A stretch of DNA of 64,000 nucleotides, taken from the NCBI GenBank assembly GCA_934772045.1, contig CAKVMH010000002.1:91062-155061 (forward strand). The letters are read 5' to 3'. Under the pieces are notes generated by a model. The model made no database searches, was not told the DNA's origin, and was given only the letters and a program-made list of their open reading frames with translations. The translations under genes were made by a program, and so were the position numbers. Of the stretch, positions 2,746 to 46,591 are shown piece after piece (position 1 is the stretch's first letter; each line of letters opens with the position of its first letter). Source of the DNA: an uncultured Clostridia bacterium (GTDB lineage Bacteria > Bacillota > Clostridia > Christensenellales > UBA1242).

Positions 2746-3804
2746 ATGAAACAAACAAAAGTTGTTCAAATTGGTTGTGGCAAAATGAGCAAGTACACAA
2801 TGCGCTATGTTTATGAAAAAGGCGGTGTTGTACTTGCAGGTTTTGACATTAATAAAAAATTAATTGGTAAAGATATCAAAGCTGTAATTGGTGGCAAAAA
2901 AGATTATGGTGCTAAAATTTATGATGTGCAAGAATTGGAAGCACAACTTAAAATTTTAAAACCAGATGTTGCAATTGTTACAACCATGAGTTTGATGACA
3001 GACTGTATTGATGTACTTATGATTTGTGCAAAATGTGGCGTTAACGCTATCACCACTTGTGAAGAAGCATTTTATCCAAGCAACAGCGCAAAGAAACTTA
3101 CCGCTAAGCTTGACAAACTTGCCAAAGCAAACAAATGCACCATTACTGGTTCAGGTTATCAAGATTTCAGTTGGGGTAGCATGGTTGCAGGTTTGGCAGG
3201 CACCAGTCAATCAATTAAAAAGATTAAAGGTAAATCAAGTTACAACGTTGAAGATTACGGCATTGCATTGGCGCAAGTCCATGGCGCAGGTTTAACACCA
3301 AAAGAATTTGAAGAAAAAATCGTGCCAGCAAATTGCGTGTCTTATGAAGAAAGCCAAGCTTTAATTGCAAAAGGTGAATTTTTACCATCATACATGTGGA
3401 ATGTTAATGGTTGGCTTTGCGAATGTTTAGGTTTGCATGTTGTTAGTCAATCACAAAAATGTGTTGCTCAAAAAGCAAAAGCGGACATTAAATCATCAAC
3501 ACTCAACATGGTGGTTAAAAAAGGTCATTGCACAGGTATGAGCGCGGTTGTCACAACCGAAACAAAAGAAGGCATCACAATTGAAAGTGAATGTATTGGT
3601 AAGGTTTACGCACCAGATGAATTCGACCAAAACGAATGGTCAATTATTGGTGAACCAAACACCACTATTACAGTTTCACGCCCATCGACTGTTGAATTGA
3701 CTTGTGCATCAGTTGTTAACCGCATTCCAGACCTTATTAAAGCAGAACCTGGTTATGTGCCAACATGCAGAATGGGTGACATCACATTTAAGACAAAAAT
3801 CTAA
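2746..3804 (+). CDS. NAD(P)-binding oxidoreductase, DapB-like / amine dehydrogenase (2,4-diaminopentanoate dehydrogenase-like) family
   Basis: N-terminal Rossmann motif VVQIGCGKMS. Length of about 350 aa and general resemblance to DapB N-domain amine dehydrogenases, from memory only. RBS AAGGGGG lies upstream. Confidence 0.45.
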   Translation: MKQTKVVQIGCGKMSKYTMRYVYEKGGVVLAGFDINKKLIGKDIKAVIGGKKDYGAKIYDVQELEAQLKILKPDVAIVTTMSLMTDCIDVLMICAKCGVNAITTCEEAFYPSNSAKKLTAKLDKLAKANKCTITGSGYQDFSWGSMVAGLAGTSQSIKKIKGKSSYNVEDYGIALAQVHGAGLTPKEFEEKIVPANCVSYEESQALIAKGEFLPSYMWNVNGWLCECLGLHVVSQSQKCVAQKAKADIKSSTLNMVVKKGHCTGMSAVVTTETKEGITIESECIGKVYAPDEFDQNEWSIIGEPNTTITVSRPSTVELTCASVVNRIPDLIKAEPGYVPTCRMGDITFKTKI

Positions 3805-3930: not shown

Positions 3931-3987
3931 GACTAACAAGAAACCAAATTTATGAGTGCCAGCGAAATAAATTGGTTTATTATTTTT
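3931..3987 (-). repeat. Stop-codon-adjacent hairpin repeat, copy R1
   Basis: AACCAAATTTAT-gagtgccagcgaa-ATAAATTGGTT. Same family as 38818..38975 and 46519..46571. Lies 2 nt from the TAG of tail copy 1. Confidence 0.7.
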
Positions 3988-3989
3988 GT

Positions 3990-4040
3990 CTATCTCGCAT
4001 TCTGCGATTGCGGGCTAACTGCCGTAGGATATAGTGGCAA
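3990..4040 (-). pseudogene. Displaced copy 1 of the last 16 codons plus stop of CDS 4184..4849
   Basis: Reverse strand reads LPLYPTAVSPQSQNAR-TAG. It differs from the intact tail at 4 nt, all at third codon positions (AGG>AGA, CAG>CAA, AGT>AGC, TAA>TAG). No start codon or RBS. Confidence 0.8.
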
Positions 4041-4084
4041 AGAAAGATTAAAATCTTTGCTTAACCTTTGGTACCGCCTAGCGT

Positions 4085-4129
4085 TTATCTCGCATTCTGT
4101 GACTGCGGGCTAACCGCTGTCGGATACAA
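4085..4129 (-). pseudogene. Displaced copy 2 of the last 14 codons plus stop of CDS 4184..4849
   Basis: Reverse strand reads LYPTAVSPQSQNAR-TAA, in frame with the intact gene (99 nt apart, two stops between). There are 6 nt differences, all synonymous third positions. Confidence 0.8.
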
Positions 4130-4183
4130 AACAAAGTATGTTTCGTAAAACTCAACATATTTGTCTGACTATATCTCCGTCAG

Positions 4184-4849
4184 TTACCTCGCATTCTGCG
4201 ACTGCGGACTAACTGCCGTAGGATATAGTGGCAAATCGAACACGCCTGGGCAGACGTCGCCACCTGTGTATGGTGTGCATGGTGGGATTGGGCAATAGCC
4301 ATAACTTGGCACCAAAACATCTACATCGGCAACAACTTTTAAGATAGTGCTTACGCATGCGTTGATAGTAAATCCACCGGTGGTTGCATTGTATGTACCT
4401 GCAGAAATAACTGCTGTACCAAATGCAACAACTTCAATAGGTGTTAATGATGGTTGTGGCACATACAAAATAACATCTTGTGGTAAACTAATTGTGCCAG
4501 TAGCAGTGCCTGCCACATTGTTAGCATCTGTGTATGTAACTGTTACAGGAACATTGATTGTGGCTTGAACACGTGCAAAATTTGGTCTGTCGTCAAAGCG
4601 AGTGATGTTGACATTGCTAACAGTTGCCTTGCCACCAAGTGAATTTCCACTTACAAATGTTAATGGGCGGGTTGGATTGGCTGGATTTAAATCTGTAAGT
4701 GCCAAAGCATAATCTTCTAATTGAGTTTGGTTCATACAAGCGTCAAACACTTTGGTTACTTGTATACAAATTCTTTCGCAAAGCCCATTTGTAACATTGT
4801 TCGTCTGTCCAGGGAATATGCCCGGACGCGAATCAGTATAAAATGACAT
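4184..4849 (-). CDS. Hypothetical Cys-rich protein with a T/V/N-rich beta-type core (possible spore-surface structural protein)
   Basis: 221-aa ORF with a strong RBS (AGGAGGTAAAAATG). Cys clusters GLCERICIQVTKVFDAC (N-terminal) and YGYCPIPPCTPYTGGDVCPG (C-terminal). No signal peptide. No family assigned with confidence. Confidence 0.7.
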   Translation of the reverse strand: MSFYTDSRPGIFPGQTNNVTNGLCERICIQVTKVFDACMNQTQLEDYALALTDLNPANPTRPLTFVSGNSLGGKATVSNVNITRFDDRPNFARVQATINVPVTVTYTDANNVAGTATGTISLPQDVILYVPQPSLTPIEVVAFGTAVISAGTYNATTGGFTINACVSTILKVVADVDVLVPSYGYCPIPPCTPYTGGDVCPGVFDLPLYPTAVSPQSQNAR

Positions 4850-11226: not shown

Positions 11227-12222
11227 ATGGTTAAATTAATAACAATTTTTTTGGTTTCGTTTGTTTTGGCTGTGGTGTTGATGCCTATTTTAATGAAGAT
11301 TTTTAGGTCAAAACAAGCCAGCCAAACCATATTAGGTTATATTGAAGAACACAAAAGTAAAAACGGCACATTAACAATGGGTGGTGTGGTATTTATGCTT
11401 ACAACACTAATAGTGTCGCCTATATTTATAAAATTTGACCTTGACTGGTTCGTTGCTTTGGTGGTTGCGCTGTTTTTTGGCGTGCTTGGCTTTATGGACG
11501 ACCATTTGAAAATTAAATATAAACAAAACTTAGGTTTGCGCGCTTATCAAAAGGTGATAGGACAAGTTGGCATAGCCTTAATTTTTGGCTTTTACATTTA
11601 TTTTAGTTCTCAAGGTGGGAATGTCTTTTTGCTGTTCACTGACAAGCAATTTAACATGAAATGGCTCATAATTCCATTTGTTGTTTTGGTTATGGTTGCC
11701 ACCACTAATAGCGTAAATTTAACCGATGGTTTGGACGGGCTTGCTGGTAGTGTCAGTTTTGTGTATTTGTTGATTTTCATTGCAATTTCTTGCATTTTAG
11801 GCACAAAACTTTACAACGCTGGTGAAACTGGCAAAATTTTAACAAATTTAAGCAATATAAACATGCTTTCCGCATCATTCATGGGTGCGATTTTAGGCTT
11901 TTTAATGTTTAACACATTCAAGGCAAGCATTTTTATGGGCGATGTGGGCTCGCTATGTTTAGGCGGATATATCGGCGCTTCTGCTTGCATTGTGGGGCTT
12001 GAATTTTTAATTTTAATTCTGGGCATATGTTTTGTTTTCTCAGCCGTTTCGGTAATTTTGCAGGTTGCAGTGTTCAAGTTAACAAAAAAGCGCATTTTTA
12101 AAATGGCACCATTTCATCATCATTTGCAAATGTCTAATTTAACCGAGCCTAAAATTGTCGTAATATATTCGGCAGTGACATTTTGCGCTGGCTTAATTTG
12201 TATTATTTTTTACCTTTTGTAA
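11227..12222 (+). CDS. mraY: Phospho-N-acetylmuramoyl-pentapeptide transferase
   Basis: Polytopic membrane protein with NSVNLTDGLDGLA, MGDVGSL and APFHHH motifs. Confidence 0.95.
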   Translation: MVKLITIFLVSFVLAVVLMPILMKIFRSKQASQTILGYIEEHKSKNGTLTMGGVVFMLTTLIVSPIFIKFDLDWFVALVVALFFGVLGFMDDHLKIKYKQNLGLRAYQKVIGQVGIALIFGFYIYFSSQGGNVFLLFTDKQFNMKWLIIPFVVLVMVATTNSVNLTDGLDGLAGSVSFVYLLIFIAISCILGTKLYNAGETGKILTNLSNINMLSASFMGAILGFLMFNTFKASIFMGDVGSLCLGGYIGASACIVGLEFLILILGICFVFSAVSVILQVAVFKLTKKRIFKMAPFHHHLQMSNLTEPKIVVIYSAVTFCAGLICIIFYLL

Positions 12223-12261: not shown

Positions 12262-13575
12262 ATGAAATTGAAAAATAAAAAAGTTTTAGTGTATGGTTTA
12301 AGTGCATCTGGTGAATGGGCAAGCCGTTTGCTTGTAAAGCATAAGGCAAATGTTTTTTTGTATGATGACGATGAACAAAAGTTACGCTCACGTCGCTTAA
12401 AAAACTGTTTTGTGTTGCAAGAAATAACTGAAAATGTCATTTCCGACCTTGATTTTATTGTTGTTTCGCCAGCAATTGAAAAGGACAATAAAAATTTGCA
12501 GTTGGCGGACAAGCATGGCATTTTAATAATGAGTGAAGTTGAATTCGCTTCTCACTTTGCCAAAAAATTTGTTGCAGTAACTGGCACCAACGGCAAAACC
12601 ACAACAGTGGAACTTATTGAAGCAATTTTAAGTGAAAAATACAAGGCAATTGCATGCGGGAACACAGGCTATCCGCTGTCACGCGCAGTGCTTGAAAACA
12701 AAAACTACATAAAAGTGGTGGAAGTAAGCAGTTTCATGCTGGAACATGCGTCAACTTTTGCGCCACATGTTGCCACAATTTTAAACATCGAGCCAGACCA
12801 CCTAATTCGCCACAAAACCATGGCAGAGTACACAAAACTTAAATTCAACATATTTAAAAATTTAAAACCCACCGATTATGCAGTGGTAAATTTGGACAGT
12901 AACATTCATTGCACCACGCACACAAATGTGGTTACATATTCATATCGCCACATGGCAGATGTTTATTATAACAAGGGTAGTATTTATTTGCACCAACAAA
13001 AGGTTATCGACATCAATCAATTGAAAATTTCAGGCAAGCACAACATTTTGAATGTGATGTGCGCCATTTGTTACGCTTACATTTATAAACTGCCAATTAC
13101 AAAAATCAAAACCGCGCTTATGAACTTCAATGCGGACAATTTTAGGAACACACCGCTTAATGTGGACGGCAACATCAAATTTATTAACGACAGCAAATCA
13201 ACCAACATAGCCTCAACTTTGGCAAGCGTGGAAGCATGCGACGGCGCAATTATTTTGTTACTAGGAGGGTCAAATAAAGGCTTAAATTACACCCAACTTT
13301 TTGAAAAATTGCCAAACAAAGTTAAACAAATTGTAGCATACGGTGAAATTAGGGAAACATTGGCAAACACAAACTCAAACTTAAACACAAATTTTAAATT
13401 TGCACAATTTGAAACATTGCAACAAGCCTTTGAATTTGCAACACAAAATGCAAAACCTGGCGACACAATTCTTTTTTCGCCGTCAAGCGCAAGTTACGAC
13501 CAATACGCAAACTATGTTGAGCGTGGCGAACATTTTAACAGTTTGGTGAAGGCGTATGTTGAAGCAAAAAACTAA
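12262..13575 (+). CDS. murD: UDP-MurNAc-L-alanine:D-glutamate ligase
   Basis: VTGTNGKTTT, DSKSTN and cluster position. Confidence 0.9.
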   Translation: MKLKNKKVLVYGLSASGEWASRLLVKHKANVFLYDDDEQKLRSRRLKNCFVLQEITENVISDLDFIVVSPAIEKDNKNLQLADKHGILIMSEVEFASHFAKKFVAVTGTNGKTTTVELIEAILSEKYKAIACGNTGYPLSRAVLENKNYIKVVEVSSFMLEHASTFAPHVATILNIEPDHLIRHKTMAEYTKLKFNIFKNLKPTDYAVVNLDSNIHCTTHTNVVTYSYRHMADVYYNKGSIYLHQQKVIDINQLKISGKHNILNVMCAICYAYIYKLPITKIKTALMNFNADNFRNTPLNVDGNIKFINDSKSTNIASTLASVEACDGAIILLLGGSNKGLNYTQLFEKLPNKVKQIVAYGEIRETLANTNSNLNTNFKFAQFETLQQAFEFATQNAKPGDTILFSPSSASYDQYANYVERGEHFNSLVKAYVEAKN

Positions 13576-14665
13576 CCAAATAATAATCATTTGTTGCACC
13601 TTTATCCTTGCCATTTTTGGTTGCATAATGGTGTATAGCGCAAGTAAATATTCTGCCACACTGCATTACAACAACCCTTTCTTTTACCTTAAAAAACAAA
13701 TAATAGGTGTGGTTGTTGGGGCAATAGGATTAATTGTCTGCTCGTTCGTCAATCATAAAATTTACAAAAAATTTTATTGGGTTTTCTATATCGTTGGCTT
13801 AATCTTTTTGTGCCTTGTGTTTGTGCCAGGGCTTAAACGCACAAGTTACGGCGCAACACGCTGGATAGGCATAGGCTCACTTACCATGCAACCAAGTGAA
13901 ATTGCAAAGTTTTGCCTTGTTTTCTTTTTGGCGGGCTATTTAAGCGACGGCGACAAACTTGGCAGTTTTAAACATGTCATTATAACGCTTACTCTTGGCG
14001 GACTGTATTGCTTGCTAATTATGTTAGAACCAAACATGAGCATAACCATGTGCGTTGCTTTCACGCTTATTTTTATGTTGTTTATTGGTGGCATGCGCCT
14101 AAAAGTTTTTTGTCTTTTAATTGTGCCAGCCGTCGCAATGGTTGTTTTGCTTATAATCATTGAACCTTACCGTTTAAGTCGAATAATAGCCTTCATAAAC
14201 CCATGGGAAAACCCACTTGACGAAGGATACCAACTCATTCAATCACTCTATGCTATCGGCAGTGGTGGAATGTGGGGCGTAGGGCTGTTTAAAAGCCGTC
14301 AAGCCGAATTGTTTTTGCCGTTCAGTGAAAGTGACTTTATATTTTCAATCATTGCCGAAGAACTTGGCTTTGTTGGGTGCTTGTGCCTTGTTGCAGTCTT
14401 TGCATTGCTTATCTTTACCATTTTCAAAGTTGGCATGCGCGCCAGCAACAAATTTTCATCATTCCTTTGTTTTGGCATAGGCGCACTCATAAGCATACAG
14501 GTTATTTTAAACATCGCAGTAGTTTCAGGCTCCATTCCGCCAACTGGCTTGCCTTTGCCGTTTATTAGTGCTGGCTCAACATCACTTCTCGTCTTCATGT
14601 CAGCAATCGGTATTGTTATCAATGTCGATAGGCAAACTAACAAGGAAATAAGTTTAAACAAATAG
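13556..14665 (+). CDS. ftsW: SEDS-family peptidoglycan glycosyltransferase FtsW/SpoVE
   Basis: About 10 TM segments. Motifs QPSEIAK, SESDFIFS, GLPLPFISAGSTS. Follows murD. Confidence 0.9.
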   Translation: MLKQKTNQIIIICCTFILAIFGCIMVYSASKYSATLHYNNPFFYLKKQIIGVVVGAIGLIVCSFVNHKIYKKFYWVFYIVGLIFLCLVFVPGLKRTSYGATRWIGIGSLTMQPSEIAKFCLVFFLAGYLSDGDKLGSFKHVIITLTLGGLYCLLIMLEPNMSITMCVAFTLIFMLFIGGMRLKVFCLLIVPAVAMVVLLIIIEPYRLSRIIAFINPWENPLDEGYQLIQSLYAIGSGGMWGVGLFKSRQAELFLPFSESDFIFSIIAEELGFVGCLCLVAVFALLIFTIFKVGMRASNKFSSFLCFGIGALISIQVILNIAVVSGSIPPTGLPLPFISAGSTSLLVFMSAIGIVINVDRQTNKEISLNK

Positions 14666-14672
14666 CAGAAAA

Positions 14673-14708
14673 ATGTATACATGTCGCAAATAAGTATACA
14701 TTTTTTTT
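14673..14708 (+). terminator. Intrinsic terminator after ftsW
   Basis: ATGTATAC ... GTATACAT stem followed by T8. Confidence 0.6.
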
Positions 14709-14746
14709 ATTGTATGCTAAAATATCAGTACACATAGGAGGTTATT

Positions 14747-15118
14747 ATGGGAAATTTATCAAAAGCAGATTTACAATGGAATAAAATGATGGATTTATGG
14801 GTTGAAGAAAAATTGGAATCACCATATTTAGAACTTATTGAATATTTTAATGGTATCAATGGAGAGGGACATTTTTGCCATTTTGATAATGTGAGTGATA
14901 ATAAAGACTTAAAAAAATATGTTACAACATTAACGACAATTCTGCCAGAACCATTAAAGAGCAACATTGAACTTGCTTATAAAACATACAAAATTAATCC
15001 AGACGATATAAGCGATGAAAATGAAGAAATATTAAATAATTGTGATAGCGTTTATTATAAAAATGAAGAACTTATTAGTGAAATTTTAAGAAAAAGAGCA
15101 AGTAAAATTAAGTTATAA
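14747..15118 (+). CDS. Small acidic hypothetical protein, possibly DUF4375/DMP19-like (immunity-type fold)
   Basis: RBS TAGGAGG. 123 aa. YFNGINGEGHFCHFDN resembles the vNNGGf.qFf.N core I recall for DUF4375 (low confidence). Bracketed by duplicated ftsW 3' ends. Confidence 0.6.
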   Translation: MGNLSKADLQWNKMMDLWVEEKLESPYLELIEYFNGINGEGHFCHFDNVSDNKDLKKYVTTLTTILPEPLKSNIELAYKTYKINPDDISDENEEILNNCDSVYYKNEELISEILRKRASKIKL

Positions 15119-15179
15119 AGGAGCAATAAATCTGCTCTTTTTTAATTCTGAAATATATAATACTGCACGGACATTAGGT

Positions 15180-15287
15180 GGCTCCATTCCGCCAACAGGC
15201 TTGCCTTTGCCGTTTATTAGTGCCGGCTCAACATCACTTTTAGTCTTTATGTCTGCAATCGGTATTGTTATCAATGTCGATAGGCAG
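15180..15287 (+). pseudogene. Displaced copy of the ftsW 3' end (36 codons)
   Basis: 108 nt colinear with 14528..14635. There are 7 nt differences in 6 codons, all synonymous (ACT/ACA, GCT/GCC, CTC/TTA, TTC/TTT, TCA/TCT, CAA/CAG). No upstream ORF. Confidence 0.9.
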
Positions 15288-15303
15288 CATAAAGACAGCT
15301 GGG

Positions 15304-15396
15304 GTCCCCACAAAACGAATGTTTTGAAGGGGAAAGGAAAAACTGAGCAATAGGCAAGCATTTGCGGAGCAAATCTGCAAAAGCGAGAGTTTTGAC
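15304..15396. repeat. Two hairpin-repeat family members between the ftsW stubs
   Basis: GTCCCCACAAAACGAATGTTTTGAAGGGGA shares AAAAC(G)AATGTTTTGAAG with 34085-34103. GCGGAGCAAATCTGCAAAAGCGAGAG resembles the GAGCAAA...AGCGAA core. Confidence 0.45.
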
Positions 15397-15399
15397 GCT

Positions 15400-15440
15400 A
15401 TGTCCGCAATCGGCGTTGTTTTAAATGTAGATAGGCAAAC
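15400..15440 (+). pseudogene. Second, more diverged stub of the ftsW C-terminus
   Basis: Reads MSAIGVVLNVDRQT against MSAIGIVINVDRQT in ftsW. Changes are synonymous or conservative (I>V, I>L). Confidence 0.7.
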
Positions 15441-15650
15441 AATAAATTTTTACTATAAAAATTAGTGTATTAGATATTGCAAATCATATATTTATAATGT
15501 GATAAGTGTTGAGATATATTTAAGTTATAAAGACAAAAATCAACCATTTATCCGTCTTTAAATTATATGGCATTTAATATTAAATGCAGTGTTGATATTG
15601 GCTGTTGCAAAATTGCGCGCAAAGAGAACAAAAAATTCATATAACCTTAT

Positions 15651-16910
15651 ATGAATAAAGATAAATTTATAATTCGCGGTGGAAACACGCTTTGTGGCAC
15701 ATTGAAGGTGCAGACAAGCAAAAATGCAACTTTACCTATTCTAACTGCCAGTTTGATGAGCGGTGGCAGGGTAGAAATCAAAGATTATCCGCATATTATT
15801 GATGTTGAAAATATGTGCGCTATTTTAAAGGCGCTTAATGTTGATGTTGAAAAAACTTTCGACACCATATTTTTAGACCCACAAAACGCGAATAACGATA
15901 ACATGGACTTTGAATTGATGCGCACAATGCGTTCATCAATTTTTTTGCTTGGAAGCATGCTGGCACGCTTTAAACGCGCCACAATTACCCAGCCAGGCGG
16001 TTGTAAAATTGGCAAGCGCTCAATTGACATACATTTATCATCTTTGAAGAAAATGGGCGTCAAAATTGTTGAGCTGGGCGAATACATATTTTTAGATGCG
16101 ACAAAGGCACATAATGCAAAAATTAAACTTAAAATGCCAAGCGTTGGGGCAACTGAAAACCTTATTCAATTTGCGTGTTTAACGCCAGGTAAAACGGTTT
16201 TAAAAAATGTTGCGCGTGAGCCTGAAATTGTTGATTTGTGTAAGTTTCTTAAAAGTATGGGTGCAAAAATTTATGGCGAAGGCACAAGTATAATTACAAT
16301 ATTTGGTGTGAATAAGTTGTGTGGCACACATTATACTCCAATTGGTGACCGCATTGTCGCTGGCACGCTTATGGTTGCAACTGCCATTGCTGGCGGGCAT
16401 GTTAGGTTGACTAATGCAGTACCAAACCAAAACGCAAATTTAATTGAAAAGTTAAGGCGAATTGGTTGTCAAATTGAAATTGAAAATGATATACTAACAA
16501 TAACTAGGACTGGTGGGCTTGTTTCATGTGGCGAAATTGCCACTGGGTTTTACCCAGATTTTCCAACCGATATGCAGTCGCAAATGTTGGCGCTCAGTTG
16601 TTTTGTTGATGGCGAAACAGATGTGTACGAAAATGTGTTTGAAAACCGCTTGTTAACTGCGCATGAATTGAACAAAATGGGTGCAAACATTTCAGTTTTA
16701 ACTAGCACACATGCAAAGGTTAAAGGTGGTTGCCGTTTGGTTGGGGCAAATGTTAAGGCGTTAGACTTGCGCGGTGGTGCAAGTTTGGTTTTGGCAGGTT
16801 TGGGGGCTAGTGGCGTCACAACCGTTACCGATGTGCATTACATTGACCGCGGTTATGTTGGTTTAGAAACAATGCTTACGGCACTTGGTGCTGACGTTAG
16901 GCGAGAATGA
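15651..16910 (+). CDS. murA: UDP-N-acetylglucosamine 1-carboxyvinyltransferase
   Basis: Colinear with MurA (FIIRGGNTLCGTLKVQTSKNATLPIL). Active-site Cys context PGGCKIGKRSIDIH. Confidence 0.93.
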   Translation: MNKDKFIIRGGNTLCGTLKVQTSKNATLPILTASLMSGGRVEIKDYPHIIDVENMCAILKALNVDVEKTFDTIFLDPQNANNDNMDFELMRTMRSSIFLLGSMLARFKRATITQPGGCKIGKRSIDIHLSSLKKMGVKIVELGEYIFLDATKAHNAKIKLKMPSVGATENLIQFACLTPGKTVLKNVAREPEIVDLCKFLKSMGAKIYGEGTSIITIFGVNKLCGTHYTPIGDRIVAGTLMVATAIAGGHVRLTNAVPNQNANLIEKLRRIGCQIEIENDILTITRTGGLVSCGEIATGFYPDFPTDMQSQMLALSCFVDGETDVYENVFENRLLTAHELNKMGANISVLTSTHAKVKGGCRLVGANVKALDLRGGASLVLAGLGASGVTTVTDVHYIDRGYVGLETMLTALGADVRRE

Positions 16911-27477: not shown

Positions 27478-27680
27478 ACACTAAAAACTACCAGATGTTC
27501 TGGTCGTTCGGTTGATGTTTACAGATTGACATAAATTTCGTGTCCTCTTGCGAGTGGAAGGGCGTCACAACCTGTGCTGTGTAATCGTTTTGCAAAAGCA
27601 AAACTCAATTTACGCTTGGTTGTTCCTTTCCCCAACAAACCCACCATGTTAGGCTTTGTTGGGGTACTCTGATGAGTACC
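27478..27680. repeat. Unclassified structured element, copy A (modules 1 and 2)
   Basis: 27478-27562 aligns with 60083-60163. 27545-27664 aligns with the reverse complement of 35686-35800. Contains hairpins 27588-27603, 27630-27664 and 27663-27680. Confidence 0.6.
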
Positions 27681-27759: not shown

Positions 27760-27785
27760 ATAATATATTTTAAGGAGTGTTAGTC

Positions 27786-30197
27786 ATGGCGATGTATTAC
27801 CTTGTTGAACAAAACGGAGAGCATTTTTATGTGGACGCAGGTGGGCGACGCGTTCCAGAAGAAAACTTAAAGGGGGACTTTACTTCGGTCAATTATGACG
27901 CTGATTTGGCTTCAAGTAAAGTTAAAACTATAACTCAAAGTGGCAAATTCGGCTACCAAACATTAGATGGGCAACCTCTTGTTGATTGTGTTTTAGACTA
28001 TGACATTAAAACCGCACAAGGTTTTGTGGATGCAATGTCAAGCCTTAAAGCAAAATATATTCAACTTATCCAACAACATCCAGAGAATAAAGCCAAACTT
28101 AGGCAGGAACTTGAACAAGAGGTTAAAAATCTGCATGGGGCAAGGTTAAAAATTATTGCTCATATGCAAAAGTTGGAAAGGGAAGCAACTGCTGAAAAGG
28201 AAACCGCCAAAACACCTTCCAACACAACAGAAACTGTTTCGCCAGCCAAAACAAACAACGCCACAACTTCAACCGCAACAACGCCTGTAACGACAACCGA
28301 AAGCTCTTCACAAACCAAAACCCCTTTGGGCAATGGCATCACAATGCTTAGGGATACACAAGGTCACTACGGCTATGAAGATAAAGATGGCAACATATTT
28401 ATTCCTTGCGACTTGCCAATAGATGTGTCTGCTCCTTCAAAAACATATAACGCTTCAGTAACAAAACTTTTTGAGGAATGCAAAGTTAAGCTTAATTTAT
28501 GCACACCAAGTGAAAAGCAAGCGTTAATAAATGAATATAAGCAATTGTCAGAACGCATACAGACCGCTAGGCAAGCATACAACAGTAAAGTTAAAGAATT
28601 GAAAACATCAAACAGCACCAGCACAGCTACAGCCGAAACAGCTACAGCAAAAACCGCAGAACCAAGCACAACAGACACCAACAAAGTGGCCGAAACTAAA
28701 GCCAGCACCAGTGAAACCAATAATACAACAGGTAAATTTGGCATAACTATTGTAACTGACTCTAATAGCAAACGTCTACATGTAAAAGACGAAAATGGTA
28801 AAATAGTAAAAGACTATCGATTTATGAGTTTTTCACCTGAAGAAAATGTGTATGTTGTTGAAGGCAAACATATTTTTGATTATGGAGTTTTAAATGCAGA
28901 AGGAAAAGAAATTGTTCCTTGTGGCAAATATGTAAAAATTGGACTTTCCTTTTCTGAAGGCCTTGTGTGGGTTGTGAGCAGAGATGATTATCACATCAAG
29001 TTTATTAATAAAGATGGTAATGTTGTTATAGATTCGGACTATACCGATGCTTCTAACTTTTCCGAAGGCTTTGCCGCTGTTAAAAAAGATGGCAAATGGG
29101 GTTTCATCGATAAAGATGGCAAAAAAATTGGTGAATTTGAATATGATGGTGTCCAGCCTTTTCATGATGGTTTAGCGTTGGTTTCAAAAGACGGAGCAAA
29201 AGGTTTTATCGATAAAGATGGCAAAAAACTCGGTGAAATCGAGTATGACGAAACGTATACTCACAGTTTTACGAATGGATTGGCATGTGTCAAAAAGAAG
29301 AATGGTGAATTTGGTGTAATTGATACAAATGGTAATCCAGTTATAGATTTCGGCAAATATGAGTATATTGGCGATTTTGATCGTGAATATACAAAGGCTA
29401 AAGGGAAAGATGGTAAATATGGCATAATAAATAGAAGTGGTGATCCAATTGTAAAATTTGAATACGATAGCTTGCATATATGTGGCGAAAATCTTGTAGA
29501 AGTGTTTAAAGATGGGAAATATGGTTTTATTGATATACATGGAAACGTAATTGTAGATATCAATTGTATTACTTCAAATATACTTACTCGTGGCTTAGTA
29601 TATTTCAGGAGCAAAGAAAAACAAGGCTTGGTTAATGACGATGGTGTCGTTTCATATTACGATCAAGTTATAGATAGAATGTCCGATGATTTTGTTAGTG
29701 TTAAAAAAGATGGTAAATGGGGTTATGTCAATAAAAAAGGTGAACTCCTTAAAGGTGGCTATATTTATGATAAAACCGAAGATTTTTATTACGAACGAGC
29801 CATTGTTAATATAAATGGTAAATGGGGCTTAATTAATAATGATGGCGACATAATTATAGGTTGTGATTATGATGGAATCCATCAAATCATAAGTGGAAAT
29901 TTTGTTTACGCAGAAAAAGATGGCAAATTTGGCATTTTTGATAGAGATGGCATTGAAATTGTTAAATGTACATTAACAGAGGAAGAGGCCGATGAAGCAA
30001 TTGCTAAACTGAAAGAGGGCACATTTAACCCTGAAGATTATAAGCAGGAAACAGTAGGAGCAAACAGCAAGAGAAACACAGGCATCACTGGTGACGATAA
30101 AAGTTTAACAGATGGTGATGAGGGAGTAACTAGCGACGGTGAAGATGTCACTGATTGCGACGACGGCGTTACTGGTGACGGCGGTATAACTGTCTAA
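27786..30197 (+). CDS. Large WG-repeat (KWG-type beta-propeller repeat) protein
   Basis: More than 10 repeats of the KDGKWGFIDKDGK.i.efeYD type. ATG 27786 is preferred over track GTG 27777 because AAGGAG lies 8 nt upstream. Two T/S-rich linkers. No signal peptide. Confidence 0.8.
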   Translation: MAMYYLVEQNGEHFYVDAGGRRVPEENLKGDFTSVNYDADLASSKVKTITQSGKFGYQTLDGQPLVDCVLDYDIKTAQGFVDAMSSLKAKYIQLIQQHPENKAKLRQELEQEVKNLHGARLKIIAHMQKLEREATAEKETAKTPSNTTETVSPAKTNNATTSTATTPVTTTESSSQTKTPLGNGITMLRDTQGHYGYEDKDGNIFIPCDLPIDVSAPSKTYNASVTKLFEECKVKLNLCTPSEKQALINEYKQLSERIQTARQAYNSKVKELKTSNSTSTATAETATAKTAEPSTTDTNKVAETKASTSETNNTTGKFGITIVTDSNSKRLHVKDENGKIVKDYRFMSFSPEENVYVVEGKHIFDYGVLNAEGKEIVPCGKYVKIGLSFSEGLVWVVSRDDYHIKFINKDGNVVIDSDYTDASNFSEGFAAVKKDGKWGFIDKDGKKIGEFEYDGVQPFHDGLALVSKDGAKGFIDKDGKKLGEIEYDETYTHSFTNGLACVKKKNGEFGVIDTNGNPVIDFGKYEYIGDFDREYTKAKGKDGKYGIINRSGDPIVKFEYDSLHICGENLVEVFKDGKYGFIDIHGNVIVDINCITSNILTRGLVYFRSKEKQGLVNDDGVVSYYDQVIDRMSDDFVSVKKDGKWGYVNKKGELLKGGYIYDKTEDFYYERAIVNINGKWGLINNDGDIIIGCDYDGIHQIISGNFVYAEKDGKFGIFDRDGIEIVKCTLTEEEADEAIAKLKEGTFNPEDYKQETVGANSKRNTGITGDDKSLTDGDEGVTSDGEDVTDCDDGVTGDGGITV

Positions 30198-35297: not shown

Positions 35298-35328
35298 TAA
35301 TGTTAAATTTATTTGACCTCTAGGGAGA

Positions 35329-35376
35329 TAAAAAACACAAGTTGTATGAGCTTGTGTTTTCGAGTGGTCCCGAAGG
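35329..35376 (-). repeat. Duplicate of the tRNA-Leu 3' end (12 nt) plus its terminator
   Basis: AAAAACACAAG...CTTGTGTTTTCGAGTGGTCCCGAAGG occurs again at 35494-35541, where it is part of the intact tRNA. Confidence 0.8.
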
Positions 35377-35528
35377 CGAGTAGCGTTAAAAAAGTTGCCA
35401 CAATTGGCAAGTTTTAGCGTGACGAGTGCGAATGTTTACATGAGCTGGACTCGGTCGAACTTGTTTGACCCCGACCGAAACGTATTAAAAGAATAAAAAC
35501 ACAAGTTTATACAACTTGTGTTTTCGAG

Positions 35529-35614
35529 TGGTCCCGAAGGTCGGGGTCGAACCGACATGATATTGCTATCGCAAGATTTTGAGTCTTGTGCGTCTGCCAT
35601 TTCGCCACTTCGGG
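35529..35614 (-). tRNA. tRNA-Leu (anticodon CAA), CCA encoded
   Basis: Manual cloverleaf. Acceptor CCCGAAG/CTTCGGG. Anticodon stem CAAGA/TCTTG with loop CTCAAAA. Long variable arm GATA-gcaa-TATC. T arm GTCGG-TTCGACC-CCGAC. Confidence 0.9.
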
Positions 35615-35685
35615 ATAGGTAATTAAGATGTACGATGAATTAACTAATTGACCAGTGTTTCAGCACAAGACAATTAGGGTTCCCA

Positions 35686-35780
35686 CCGCAACAAGTTGCG
35701 GAAGGGATAAGGAACAACCAAACAAAGGTTGAGATTGCGAACTTGCAGAGCAATCGCACAATAAGTGCAGGTTGTGACGC
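35686..35780. repeat. Unclassified structured element, copy B (module 2, opposite orientation to copy A)
   Basis: Shares blocks with the reverse complement of copy A: AAGGAACAACCAA (35709-35721), TTGAG, CAGGTTGTGACGC (35768-35780). Hairpins sit at equivalent positions but have different sequences. Confidence 0.6.
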
Positions 35781-35827
35781 GCGTCTGCCATTTCGCGATT
35801 GGGCGAAGGATTTTTCGCCACTTCGGG
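35781..35827 (-). pseudogene. tRNA-Leu 5'-half copy (acceptor and D arm) with a 22-nt insertion
   Basis: Reverse strand CCCGAAGTGGCGAA[aaatccttcgcccaatcgcgaa]ATGGCAGACGC matches nt 1-25 of the intact tRNA-Leu. No anticodon or T arm follows. Confidence 0.75.
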
Positions 35828-35882
35828 TTATATCATTAAGATGTTCGAAGTGACGAAGGAATTTTCGTCACTTCTAAACATT

Positions 35883-38817: not shown

Positions 38818-38975
38818 GTGAATACAACAAACCGAATTTACGAGCAAAGGCGAAGGAAATCGGTTTATTCTGAATACAACAAACCGATTTTACAAGTGTG
38901 AGCGAAGAAAATTGGTTTATTTTGGATACAACAACCATATTTATGGGCGAGAGCAAAATAAATTGGTTTGTTTTT
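38818..38975 (-). repeat. Three tandem 52-53-bp copies of the stop-codon-adjacent hairpin repeat (R2a-c)
   Basis: Units begin at 38818, 38871 and 38924. Each is GAATACAACAAACC-arm-loop(GAGCGAAG-like)-arm'-TTT(A/G)TT. Copy c overlaps the TAA of CDS 38974..39681. Confidence 0.8.
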
Positions 38976-46332: not shown

Positions 46333-46524
46333 ATGGCTGTTCCAAAAGGGAAAGTGTCAAAAGCACGCAGAGATAAACGTCGTGCTAACTGGAAAGCAGC
46401 TGTTCCAACATTAGTTGAATGTCCACATTGCCATGAAAAGAAAGTGGCACATAAAGTTTGCAAAAATTGTGGTTACTATGACGGTGAACAAGTTGTATCA
46501 GTTGACAAAAAAGAAAGTAAATAA
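46333..46524 (+). CDS. rpmF: 50S ribosomal protein L32
   Basis: [21 protein letters not shown]...[20 protein letters not shown] zinc ribbon. GGAGG RBS. The track ORF starts too early. Confidence 0.95.
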
Positions 46525-46571
46525 ACCAATTTATTTCGCTCAAGCTCATAAATATGGTTTGTTTTATTCAC
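46519..46571 (+). repeat. Stop-codon-adjacent hairpin repeat, copy R3
   Basis: AAACCAATTTAT-ttcgctcaagctc-ATAAATATGGTTT followed by GTTTTATT. Overlaps the rpmF TAA (46522-46524). Confidence 0.75.
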
Positions 46572-46591
46572 AAGAACATTTTTTAAATTTA

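Follow-up and report, generated by a model that had tools for sequence, protein, structure and literature searches.

The junction between ftsW and murA in the cell-division and wall cluster of an uncultured Clostridia bacterium is the subject of this analysis; it lies in a stretch of 64,000 nucleotides of contig CAKVMH010000002.1, which is henceforth called the window. In this cluster, mraY (11227-12222), murD (12262-13575) and ftsW are followed by a gap of 985 nt and then by murA, an ftsQ-like gene, ftsA and ftsZ. The gap contains two further copies of the 3' end of ftsW, one small gene and a structured repeat element. A first-pass annotation made from the letters alone had read this arrangement as the work of an element that brings its own replacement end and has integrated more than once at the 3' end of ftsW, with no integrase nearby, and a comparison covering approximately 85 species supports this core reading. 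We consider it probable that the end of ftsW has a fixed point at which small one-gene cassettes accumulate, each restoring the gene with the end that it carries. The features of the junction are listed below.

13556-14665, + strand: ftsW, a SEDS cell-division gene (open reading frame (ORF) list; Pfam PF01098 FTSW_RODA_SPOVE, E 3.8e-100; gene order)
14528-14665, + strand: working ftsW tail, the last 36 conserved codons (GSIPPTG...NVDRQ) with the extension TNKEISLNK and a stop codon (repeat; adjoins the left module)
14667-14708, + strand: left module, part 1, a GTATAC-palindrome hairpin with a T-run, terminator of ftsW (fold dG -12.6 kcal/mol, z -3.5)
14695-14723, + strand: left module, part 2, promoter-like site, TATACA, 17 nt, TG-n-TAAAAT (promoter scan)
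14736-14741, + strand: left module, part 2, ribosome-binding site AGGAGG
14747-15118, + strand: cargo gene ORF123, encoding a DMP19-like all-alpha protein of 123 aa (homologues, Pfam, AlphaFold2)
15117-15147, + strand: cassette terminator, GGAGCA..TGCTC with a T-run (terminator scan, which placed it at 15117-15141; dG -10.7, z -4.1)
15150-15179, + strand: right end of the cassette, a diverged copy of the family motif AAATTTATAATACAATAACTGATGTTAACAGG (joint alignment)
15180-15353, + strand: stub 2, a former and now displaced tail of ftsW (15180-15287) that continues in frame into HKDSWGPHKTNVLKGKGKTEQ and a stop codon encoded by the repeat element (repeat, codon comparison)
15243-15296, + strand: 54-nt hairpin, comprising the last 14 codons of the tail together with CATAAAGAC, the beginning of the repeat element (dG -25.5 for the 54-mer)
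15296-15400, + strand: 105-nt structured repeat element of a dispersed family, with two hairpins inside a long-range stem (covariance model R1, 121.9 bits)
15400-15465, + strand: stub 3, a 13-codon restart of the tail (MSAIGVVLNVDRQ) with TINFYYKN and a stop codon (repeat; codon comparison)
15651-16910, + strand: murA, the conserved downstream border of the hotspot (Pfam EPSP_synthase, E 7.4e-82; position in relatives)

The 3' segment of ftsW at 14528-14635 is repeated at 15180-15287 with 94% identity across 107-108 nt, the longest exact run in common being 32 nt. A codon-level recount matches the initial description of three copies of which the first two differ by synonymous changes alone: all seven substitutions, which fall in six codons (ACT>ACA, GCT>GCC, CTC>TTA, TTC>TTT, TCA>TCT and CAA>CAG), are synonymous. 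Copy 3, at 15400-15440, is a 41-nt segment that is 85% identical and shows four synonymous and two conservative changes (I>V and I>L). Between copies 1 and 2, a terminator, a promoter-like region, one ORF and its own terminator had likewise been described, and each of these was located; no inverted repeats bracket the window unit.

For comparison, the junction was examined in Candidatus Onthoplasma and neighbouring uncultured gut Clostridia (loci of these related species are denoted by L-numbers), including a scan of one genome per species that yielded 80 ftsW loci whose FtsW proteins are 54-88% identical to that of the window. Both empty sites and other cargos, which the first-pass annotation had proposed to look for in relatives together with an integrase, were found, and an integrase was not. 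In about 27 species the gap between ftsW and murA amounts to 9-110 nt; the presence of stubs at such uninterrupted junctions had been named beforehand as a sign of a different origin, and these species are stub-free. About 20 species possess one to five additional ftsW tails, all on the strand of ftsW, and the rest of the scanned species have inserts without recognisable stubs. The stub-bearing layout is regular, with ftsW followed by an ORF on the + strand, a stub, another + strand ORF and another stub: five stubs are spaced at 0.7-0.9 kb in L053, two to four stubs each are found in L041, L042, L046, L015 and L027, and further arrays occur in L180 (complete, ending at murA), L183, L189-L193 and L197. 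In the last of these, a four-tail array behind ftsW (L197:8979-12868) is followed by a phosphoglucomutase gene in place of murA, so that murA does not bound the hotspot downstream in every species. By sequence comparison the phenomenon is family-wide, with arrays of up to five cassettes or more.

A DNA alignment of all tails reveals a unit frame that is common to genera and consists of a tail, a left module, usually one gene with its terminator, and a right end. The family tail runs from GG(C/T)TCAAT(C/T)CC.. (G-S-I-P-P-T-G) through ..NVDRQ, approximately 36 codons, and is completed by a short extension and a stop codon. The family left module comprises the GTATAC-palindrome hairpin with a T-run, a TGTGnTATAAT-type box and a ribosome-binding site; it was found at 22 sites in 14 species loci, always behind an ftsW tail or stub inside the ftsW-murA array region, and occurs a single time in the 64-kb window. 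The right end, a motif of approximately 35 nt (AAATTTATAATACAATAACT(G/C)(A/G)TGTTAA(C/G)AGG), abuts the next tail and precedes about 30 stubs in more than 17 species. In the window, the first 14 nt of the right end match the consensus and the remainder is approximately 60% identical to it; the window unit thus appears to be a typical family member with a somewhat diverged right end. A promoter and terminators are predicted in every cassette.

Several other assignments of these modules were tried and rejected. A miniature inverted-repeat transposable element, or a mobile insertion cassette derived from an insertion sequence, is contradicted by the lack of terminal inverted repeats and by a duplication that is 108-170 nt long and diverged rather than short. 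As a decayed upstream continuation of ftsW, the right end aligns convincingly over only its last approximately 7 nt, and its partial resemblance to a XerD arm is misplaced for the observed crossover if a dif/Xer-like site is assumed. An orphan array of the polymorphic-toxin type (contact-dependent inhibition (CDI) or Rhs) was rejected since the stubs stop 4-21 codons past the conserved region and no further domain follows. Folding of eight right-end and tail junctions as DNA gave z values from +1.3 to -2.8, no common structure and no attC-type fold. A further motif, GTCATTC(T/C)GAGCGAAG..GAATC, recurs behind tails or stubs (L020:6940-7000, L027:10010-10050, L093:4885-4915) and may represent another small repeat that targets these ends.

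The tails bear a clear signature of selection at the protein level. When 14 intact stubs were compared with their own working tails, the proportion of synonymous differences (pS) was 0.56 and that of non-synonymous differences (pN) 0.077, a pN/pS ratio of 0.14; in this wider set, non-synonymous changes are much less frequent than synonymous ones, whereas equal frequencies had been named beforehand as evidence against the interpretation. Of the five stubs of L053, three encode the same 36 residues as the working tail and two deviate from it by one to a few residues, and four comparable stubs of this array differ from the working tail at 20-24% of bases. Conservation within tails tracks codon positions, with no extra constraint at the DNA level. 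The simplest reading of this pattern is that, over most of its past, each tail was the genuine terminus of ftsW in some genome. A cassette with a defective tail would give no viable insertion, and the tails would thus keep their amino-acid sequence while drifting at synonymous sites. Several stubs are interrupted by frameshifts, stop codons or insertions of repeat elements (L020, L024, L027, L041, L197), and in five of seven arrays the stubs proximal to ftsW are more intact than the distal ones, a gradient of decay that fits a presumed entry of cassettes adjoining ftsW.

The point of entry is marked most precisely in L065 and L074, in which the bodies of FtsW come from genera with the native tails GMIPP..SIIVFMSA.GV.LNV and ..SLMVFMSAIGVCLNV, respectively. 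The working tails of both are of the type that is common in Onthoplasma cassettes (GSIPP..SLLVFMSAIGVVLNVDR..) and are foreign from the first codon past ..AGG, and the downstream stubs match genus-native DNA from that same codon. Specifically, the working gene of L065 passes from native GTGGTTTCAGG to foreign CTCAATCCC exactly behind ..AGG, and in the stub the right end ..GTTAAGAGG is followed by native AATGATTCCGCC. The combination of a foreign working tail and a native stub from one codon onward indicates that the replacement end comes from the element, whose insertion point is fixed. Both novel joints fall within the same few bases, where the homology has its far left edge and leftward of which only ..AGG is shared; such positions would be expected from the reciprocal insertion of a circle with a joint between right end and tail, and not from RecA recombination. 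The alternative that the cassette enters at the right edge of the tail and duplicates a long target was also considered and is contradicted by L065 and L074. In the window, as in L183, it is ambiguous whether the working copy is of element or native origin (the window copies are 94% identical). We infer that the working tail of the window came with the ORF123 cassette, given that it adjoins the left module of the cassette and that the working tails of L065 and L074 are foreign from the first codon.

The cargo provides an independent view of the movement of these units. For ORF123 32 homologues were found, and PF14300 (DMP19) is matched by 13 of 21 aligned family members, namely the window protein and 20 homologues (best E 2.3e-09); the window protein itself has no Pfam match above threshold, PF14300 included, and can be described as DMP19-like by way of its relatives. 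The AlphaFold2 model (predicted local distance difference test, pLDDT, 95) consists of six helices, and neither a fold search of the PDB with this model (no match with E <1) nor a profile search of PDB sequences returned a match. ORF123 homologues are 75-85% identical in genera with FtsW proteins that are approximately 52-54% identical and MurA proteins that are approximately 44-47% identical (the value for ORF123 is 84% in L183 and 79% in L093), which shows horizontal transfer of this cargo between genera. Nearly all of the homologues reside within division and cell wall (dcw) clusters, in the ftsW-murA slot, and one group is located between ftsQ and ftsA: in the L094-L097 lineage, a homologue that is 55% identical (1280-1690 in L094) lies between an ftsQ-like gene and ftsA. 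The presence of the ORF123 family at more than one position of the division cluster hints at a division-related role rather than random cargo. Across the arrays the cargo is very diverse, with 90 singletons among 187 ORFs, nearly all on the + strand, and includes GNAT acetyltransferases, S-adenosylmethionine-dependent methyltransferases, a cytidine deaminase, APH-type kinases and an ANT-like nucleotidyltransferase, along with HD, S41, S51 and M20 hydrolases, a fucosidase, a CotH kinase, leucine-rich repeat proteins and several domains of unknown function. The first-pass annotation had described the surviving cargo of the window as a single gene; the single gene stands, and its interpretation as a remnant does not, as one gene is the normal cargo of the family.

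What the comparison shows is the anatomy of the units, its conservation across genera, the transfer of cargo, the pattern of selection on the tails and the crossover point in two species. We propose that cassettes without a recombinase of their own insert approximately 135 nt before the end of ftsW, just behind the ..AGG of the V-(T/S)-G codons. The tail copy carried by the cassette would keep the essential ftsW whole, and the insertion would push the previous end of the gene downstream as an untranslated stub. Repetition of this process at one point would generate arrays in which the newest cassette adjoins ftsW. Most likely, the cassettes are inserted as circles by a site-specific recombinase encoded elsewhere, although our confidence in this class of enzyme is lower than in the accretion of cassettes with replacement ends as such.

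A number of observations weigh against this proposal. A motif scan over six-frame ORFs found no recombinase signature in the 64-kb window, in agreement with the first-pass annotation, which had noted the absence of an integrase, a transposase or inverted repeats (repeat analysis concurs with regard to the latter), and there is likewise no recombinase among approximately 50 scanned cargo proteins or in the +/-5 kb flanks. Nor did circular or episomal forms come to light. A BLAST comparison of the segment 14400-15700 with plasmid and phage records gave no match, and in viral contigs the right-end motif produced 80 chance matches, none of them adjoining an ftsW stub, and the left-module pattern none. 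No gain or loss at the strain level was seen in four species, that of the window included, each represented by 10 to more than 23 contigs with MurD or MurA as anchor; all strains carried the same array as their species, and mobility is therefore inferred from the comparison between species only. Moreover, the crossover point is pinned in two species only, L065 and L074. The main observation that the simple model leaves over comes from L183, where DNA identity with the window (approximately 90%) spans the segment from the left-module hairpin to just beyond the stop codon, with the tail and the right end excluded, and where both tail copies are native-type and 93% identical to each other; this pattern indicates that tails are sometimes homogenised by gene conversion or that cargo is swapped between frames in another way. 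Of the other searches, a metagenome scan for the joint between right end and tail returned only five matches, all in ftsW contexts and none with a recombinase; a search of 14400-15700 against Rfam gave nothing significant; and the literature yielded no account of such arrays or of an attachment site in ftsW.

Recombination through the conserved linkers alone is the main rival. Under this alternative, no dedicated recombinase exists, and the tail, the left module and the right end serve as portable homology through which DNA uptake and RecA spread the cargo, with unequal crossing-over and one ancient stub duplication accounting for the arrays, which would make the junction a hotspot of the "minimal mobile element" kind. 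It would readily explain why there is no recombinase anywhere near the arrays, why the arrays are stable within species, and why the high identity between the window and L183 is limited to the left module and the gene, as if cargo had been swapped between linkers; the two native-type tails of L183 and the 32-nt exact run shared by the window copies also speak for it. However, the junctions of L065 and L074 both fall at the far left edge, where only ..AGG is shared leftward, and the flanks offer poor homology, with FtsW and MurA approximately 45-55% identical between the genera that share cargo. Furthermore, the tails of different cassettes, at 54-86% identity, have exact runs of only 8-23 nt in common, which fall short of the normal requirement of RecA, and this makes homologous recombination between tails unlikely. 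On balance we regard linker-mediated exchange as an unlikely account of the arrays as a whole, albeit the one that has to be taken most seriously beside site-specific insertion.

It is considerably less probable that the stubs are kept for a present function, either as single-helix peptides of approximately 45 residues derived from the last helix of FtsW or as RNA or regulatory elements for murA-ftsQAZ. The pN/pS ratio of the stubs is compatible with such a function, many of them begin with an in-frame ATG or GTG just past a conserved TAA, giving (stop)-L-M/V-L-R/T-G-S, and a 60-aa FtsW-like ORF is annotated by gene callers in L189-L193. Nevertheless, no ribosome-binding site lies ahead of the stubs, stub 2 of the window has no such start codon, and many stubs are broken, with decay that grows with distance from ftsW.

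Finally, a local tandem duplication without mobility or an artefact of assembly or binning, the concern that repeats in metagenome assemblies can mislead assemblers notwithstanding, can practically be discarded: the window arrangement recurs, with identical or near-identical genes in the same order, on at least 23 contigs whose assemblies are independent and were produced with different assemblers, and is therefore no assembly artefact, the repeats, with exact runs of 23-32 nt at most, have diverged too far for assembly graphs to collapse, an element-specific right end that is not ftsW sequence precedes each stub, and the same modules surround unrelated genes in many genera. The suspicion of an assembly artefact, voiced when the repeat was first described, accordingly falls away; the only sign of assembly trouble is a scaffold gap, a run of N, which lies within ftsW immediately ahead of the repeated tail in a contig of the window species (L004:5640-5740).

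With accretion of cassettes by site-specific insertion as the preferred explanation, the DNA downstream of stub 2 can be considered. The first-pass annotation had assigned the segment between stubs 2 and 3 to a family of hairpin repeats. In a BLAST reading, the element at 15296-15400 had seemed to be unique in the window; this was overturned by a covariance model built from eight copies of other species, in which compensatory changes support the stems of the consensus fold, and which detected two more diverged copies in the window, at 35671-35782 and 27560-27674. The hairpin-repeat assignment thus proved correct. In 900 kb of ftsW loci, all 16 matches of the element lie in tails or stubs, a strong enrichment of these 105-nt structured repeats at ftsW tails. 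Within a working tail the element is translated as the extension HKDSWGPHKTNVLKGKGKTEQ (L029, L046, L050; also L027 and L074), the same extension that ends stub 2 in the window and that terminates the working FtsW of L029, L050 and L046. Behind the element the tail restarts, for 13 codons in L046, L189 and L193 or in a truncated form of approximately 11 nt in L029, L041 and L050, and in L189 and L193 the whole composite is present both in the working tail and in a stub. By this comparison, stub 2, the element and stub 3 together are evidently one displaced composite end, which is intact in L189, L029, L050 and L046, and stub 3 is apparently the oldest end, displaced by the repeat element.

The history of the window can be reconstructed in two steps: the 105-nt structured repeat first extended an older end of ftsW, leaving stub 3 behind, and the ORF123 cassette then displaced the composite end, leaving stub 2. 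The proposal that integration had occurred at least twice at this site needs amendment in this light. Repeated insertion as such is borne out by the arrays, and two events of the same kind in the window are not, given that the repeat element made stub 3 and the cassette made stub 2.

The boundary between stub 2 and the element also has a marked potential for structure. The region 15240-15300 folds with dG -27 and z -6.7, and the near-perfect 54-nt hairpin is found in five species, namely that of the window, L029 (6036), L050 (740), L189 (10324 and 11585) and L193, with dG values of approximately -21 to -26 kcal/mol. This hairpin could function as a stabiliser of the mRNA 3' end, as an attenuator or as a recombination structure.

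The two other copies of the element in the window lie away from ftsW. The copy at 35671-35782 (+ strand) is situated between tRNA-Leu(caa) and tRNA-Cys and is bracketed by a diverged 36-nt direct repeat (35600-35635 and 35813-35848) of the 5' end of tRNA-Leu with its upstream flank. At the opposite end of tRNA-Leu, a repeat of 51 nt (35326-35376 and 35490-35540), which duplicates the 3' end of this gene and a terminator, surrounds a hairpin element of approximately 115 nt that resembles an insert nested in the elements of L027 and L074. From its repeats, the tRNA-Leu site seems to show the same signature of a displaced gene end. The copy at 27560-27674 (- strand; R1 37.7 bits, E 8e-08) lies approximately 100 nt upstream of a large WG-repeat ORF (27777-30197).

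Several known systems invite comparison with the ftsW arrays. Like integrons and clusters of attC sites lacking integron integrases (CALINs), these arrays consist of tandem, mostly one-gene cassettes in one orientation at a fixed chromosomal site (L053, L041, L042, L046, L015, L027, L180, L197), with one recombination-site-like junction per cassette, apparent proximal entry of the newest cassette, and a diverse cargo that is rich in GNAT, APH, ANT, methyltransferase and unknown-function genes. An attC site is an imperfect palindrome of 57-141 nt that forms a hairpin and contains R''/L''/L'/R' boxes, and integron cassettes are mostly promoterless and read from Pc. In contrast, the ftsW arrays are devoid of IntI, their junctions have neither an attC-type palindrome nor R/L boxes, and each cassette has its own predicted promoter and terminators; moreover, their site falls in coding sequence, at the end of an essential gene that every cassette restores, and the hosts are uncultured gut Clostridia.

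With islands that integrate into gene 3' ends, such as tRNA and tmRNA islands and tycheposons, the ftsW units share the direct repeats of the target 3' end that flank the insert, as well as the supply of the working copy by the element and the displacement of the native copy, as encountered in L065 and L074. Successive integrations of tycheposons push older ones inward and leave partial copies of the target (bioRxiv 10.1101/2020.12.28.424599). The islands are large, 5-100 kb, and encode their own integrase (with the exception of ccr-less pseudo-SCC), whereas the ftsW units are 0.7-1.5 kb long, carry one gene but lack a recombinase, have a standard expression frame in common, and replace approximately 36 protein codons that are under amino-acid selection. 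Composite islands of the staphylococcal cassette chromosome (SCC) type at rlmH exhibit a comparable tandem accretion with a replacement end.

The third parallel is the concept of the minimal mobile element, developed for variable whole-gene cassettes between conserved genes of Neisseria that are exchanged through transformation and homologous recombination (the concept is used in PMC3082526). Here, too, different cassettes occupy one slot between two core genes depending on the lineage, with no transposase or integrase. Minimal mobile elements, however, have neither element-specific ends nor duplications of the target end, whereas the ftsW units possess both modules, leave stubs and stack. Taken together, the ftsW system resembles in its working both integrons and the accretion at att sites of tRNA genes or rlmH, yet it lacks the defining traits of integrons (intI, attC, promoterless cassettes) and of classical islands (their own integrase).

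Going one step further, we tentatively entertain, at somewhat less than an even chance, that these arrays constitute an integron-like gene-capture platform in genome-reduced uncultured gut Clostridia. The end of ftsW would be its entry site, the cassettes would bring a spare end and an expression frame, a recombinase encoded elsewhere or a host enzyme would insert them at one fixed base, and selection would act on the tails; the 105-nt repeats may belong to the same platform. To our knowledge, integrons are not known in these bacteria. If confirmed, the ftsW system would be a second, independently built way of safely accumulating single foreign genes at one site of the chromosome, and it would imply that an essential gene within the cell-division operon can be a landing pad, since each element mends the damage that it causes. 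The signature of tails that are identical in protein and saturated at synonymous sites could be used to find similar systems at other genes, and the cassette frame together with the fixed insertion point would define a compact candidate attB/attP pair. Furthermore, a cargo with acetyltransferases and enzymes of the aminoglycoside-modifying type would be relevant to gene flow in human and animal gut microbiomes.

The window also contains repeats of other kinds. An unrelated family of hairpins of approximately 46 nt (ACAAnAAACCnAATTTAyGAG..AAATyGGTTTATT), unlike the ftsW-stub element in sequence, occupies intergenic positions at 3936-3981, 38824-38972 (three in tandem) and 46519-46576 (inverted). 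Three 51-nt repeats with a period of approximately 97 nt (3991-4235) overlap the end of the ORF at 4184-4849 (- strand), and three operator-like repeats of 32 nt (2621-2715) lie just upstream of the ORF at 2746-3804.

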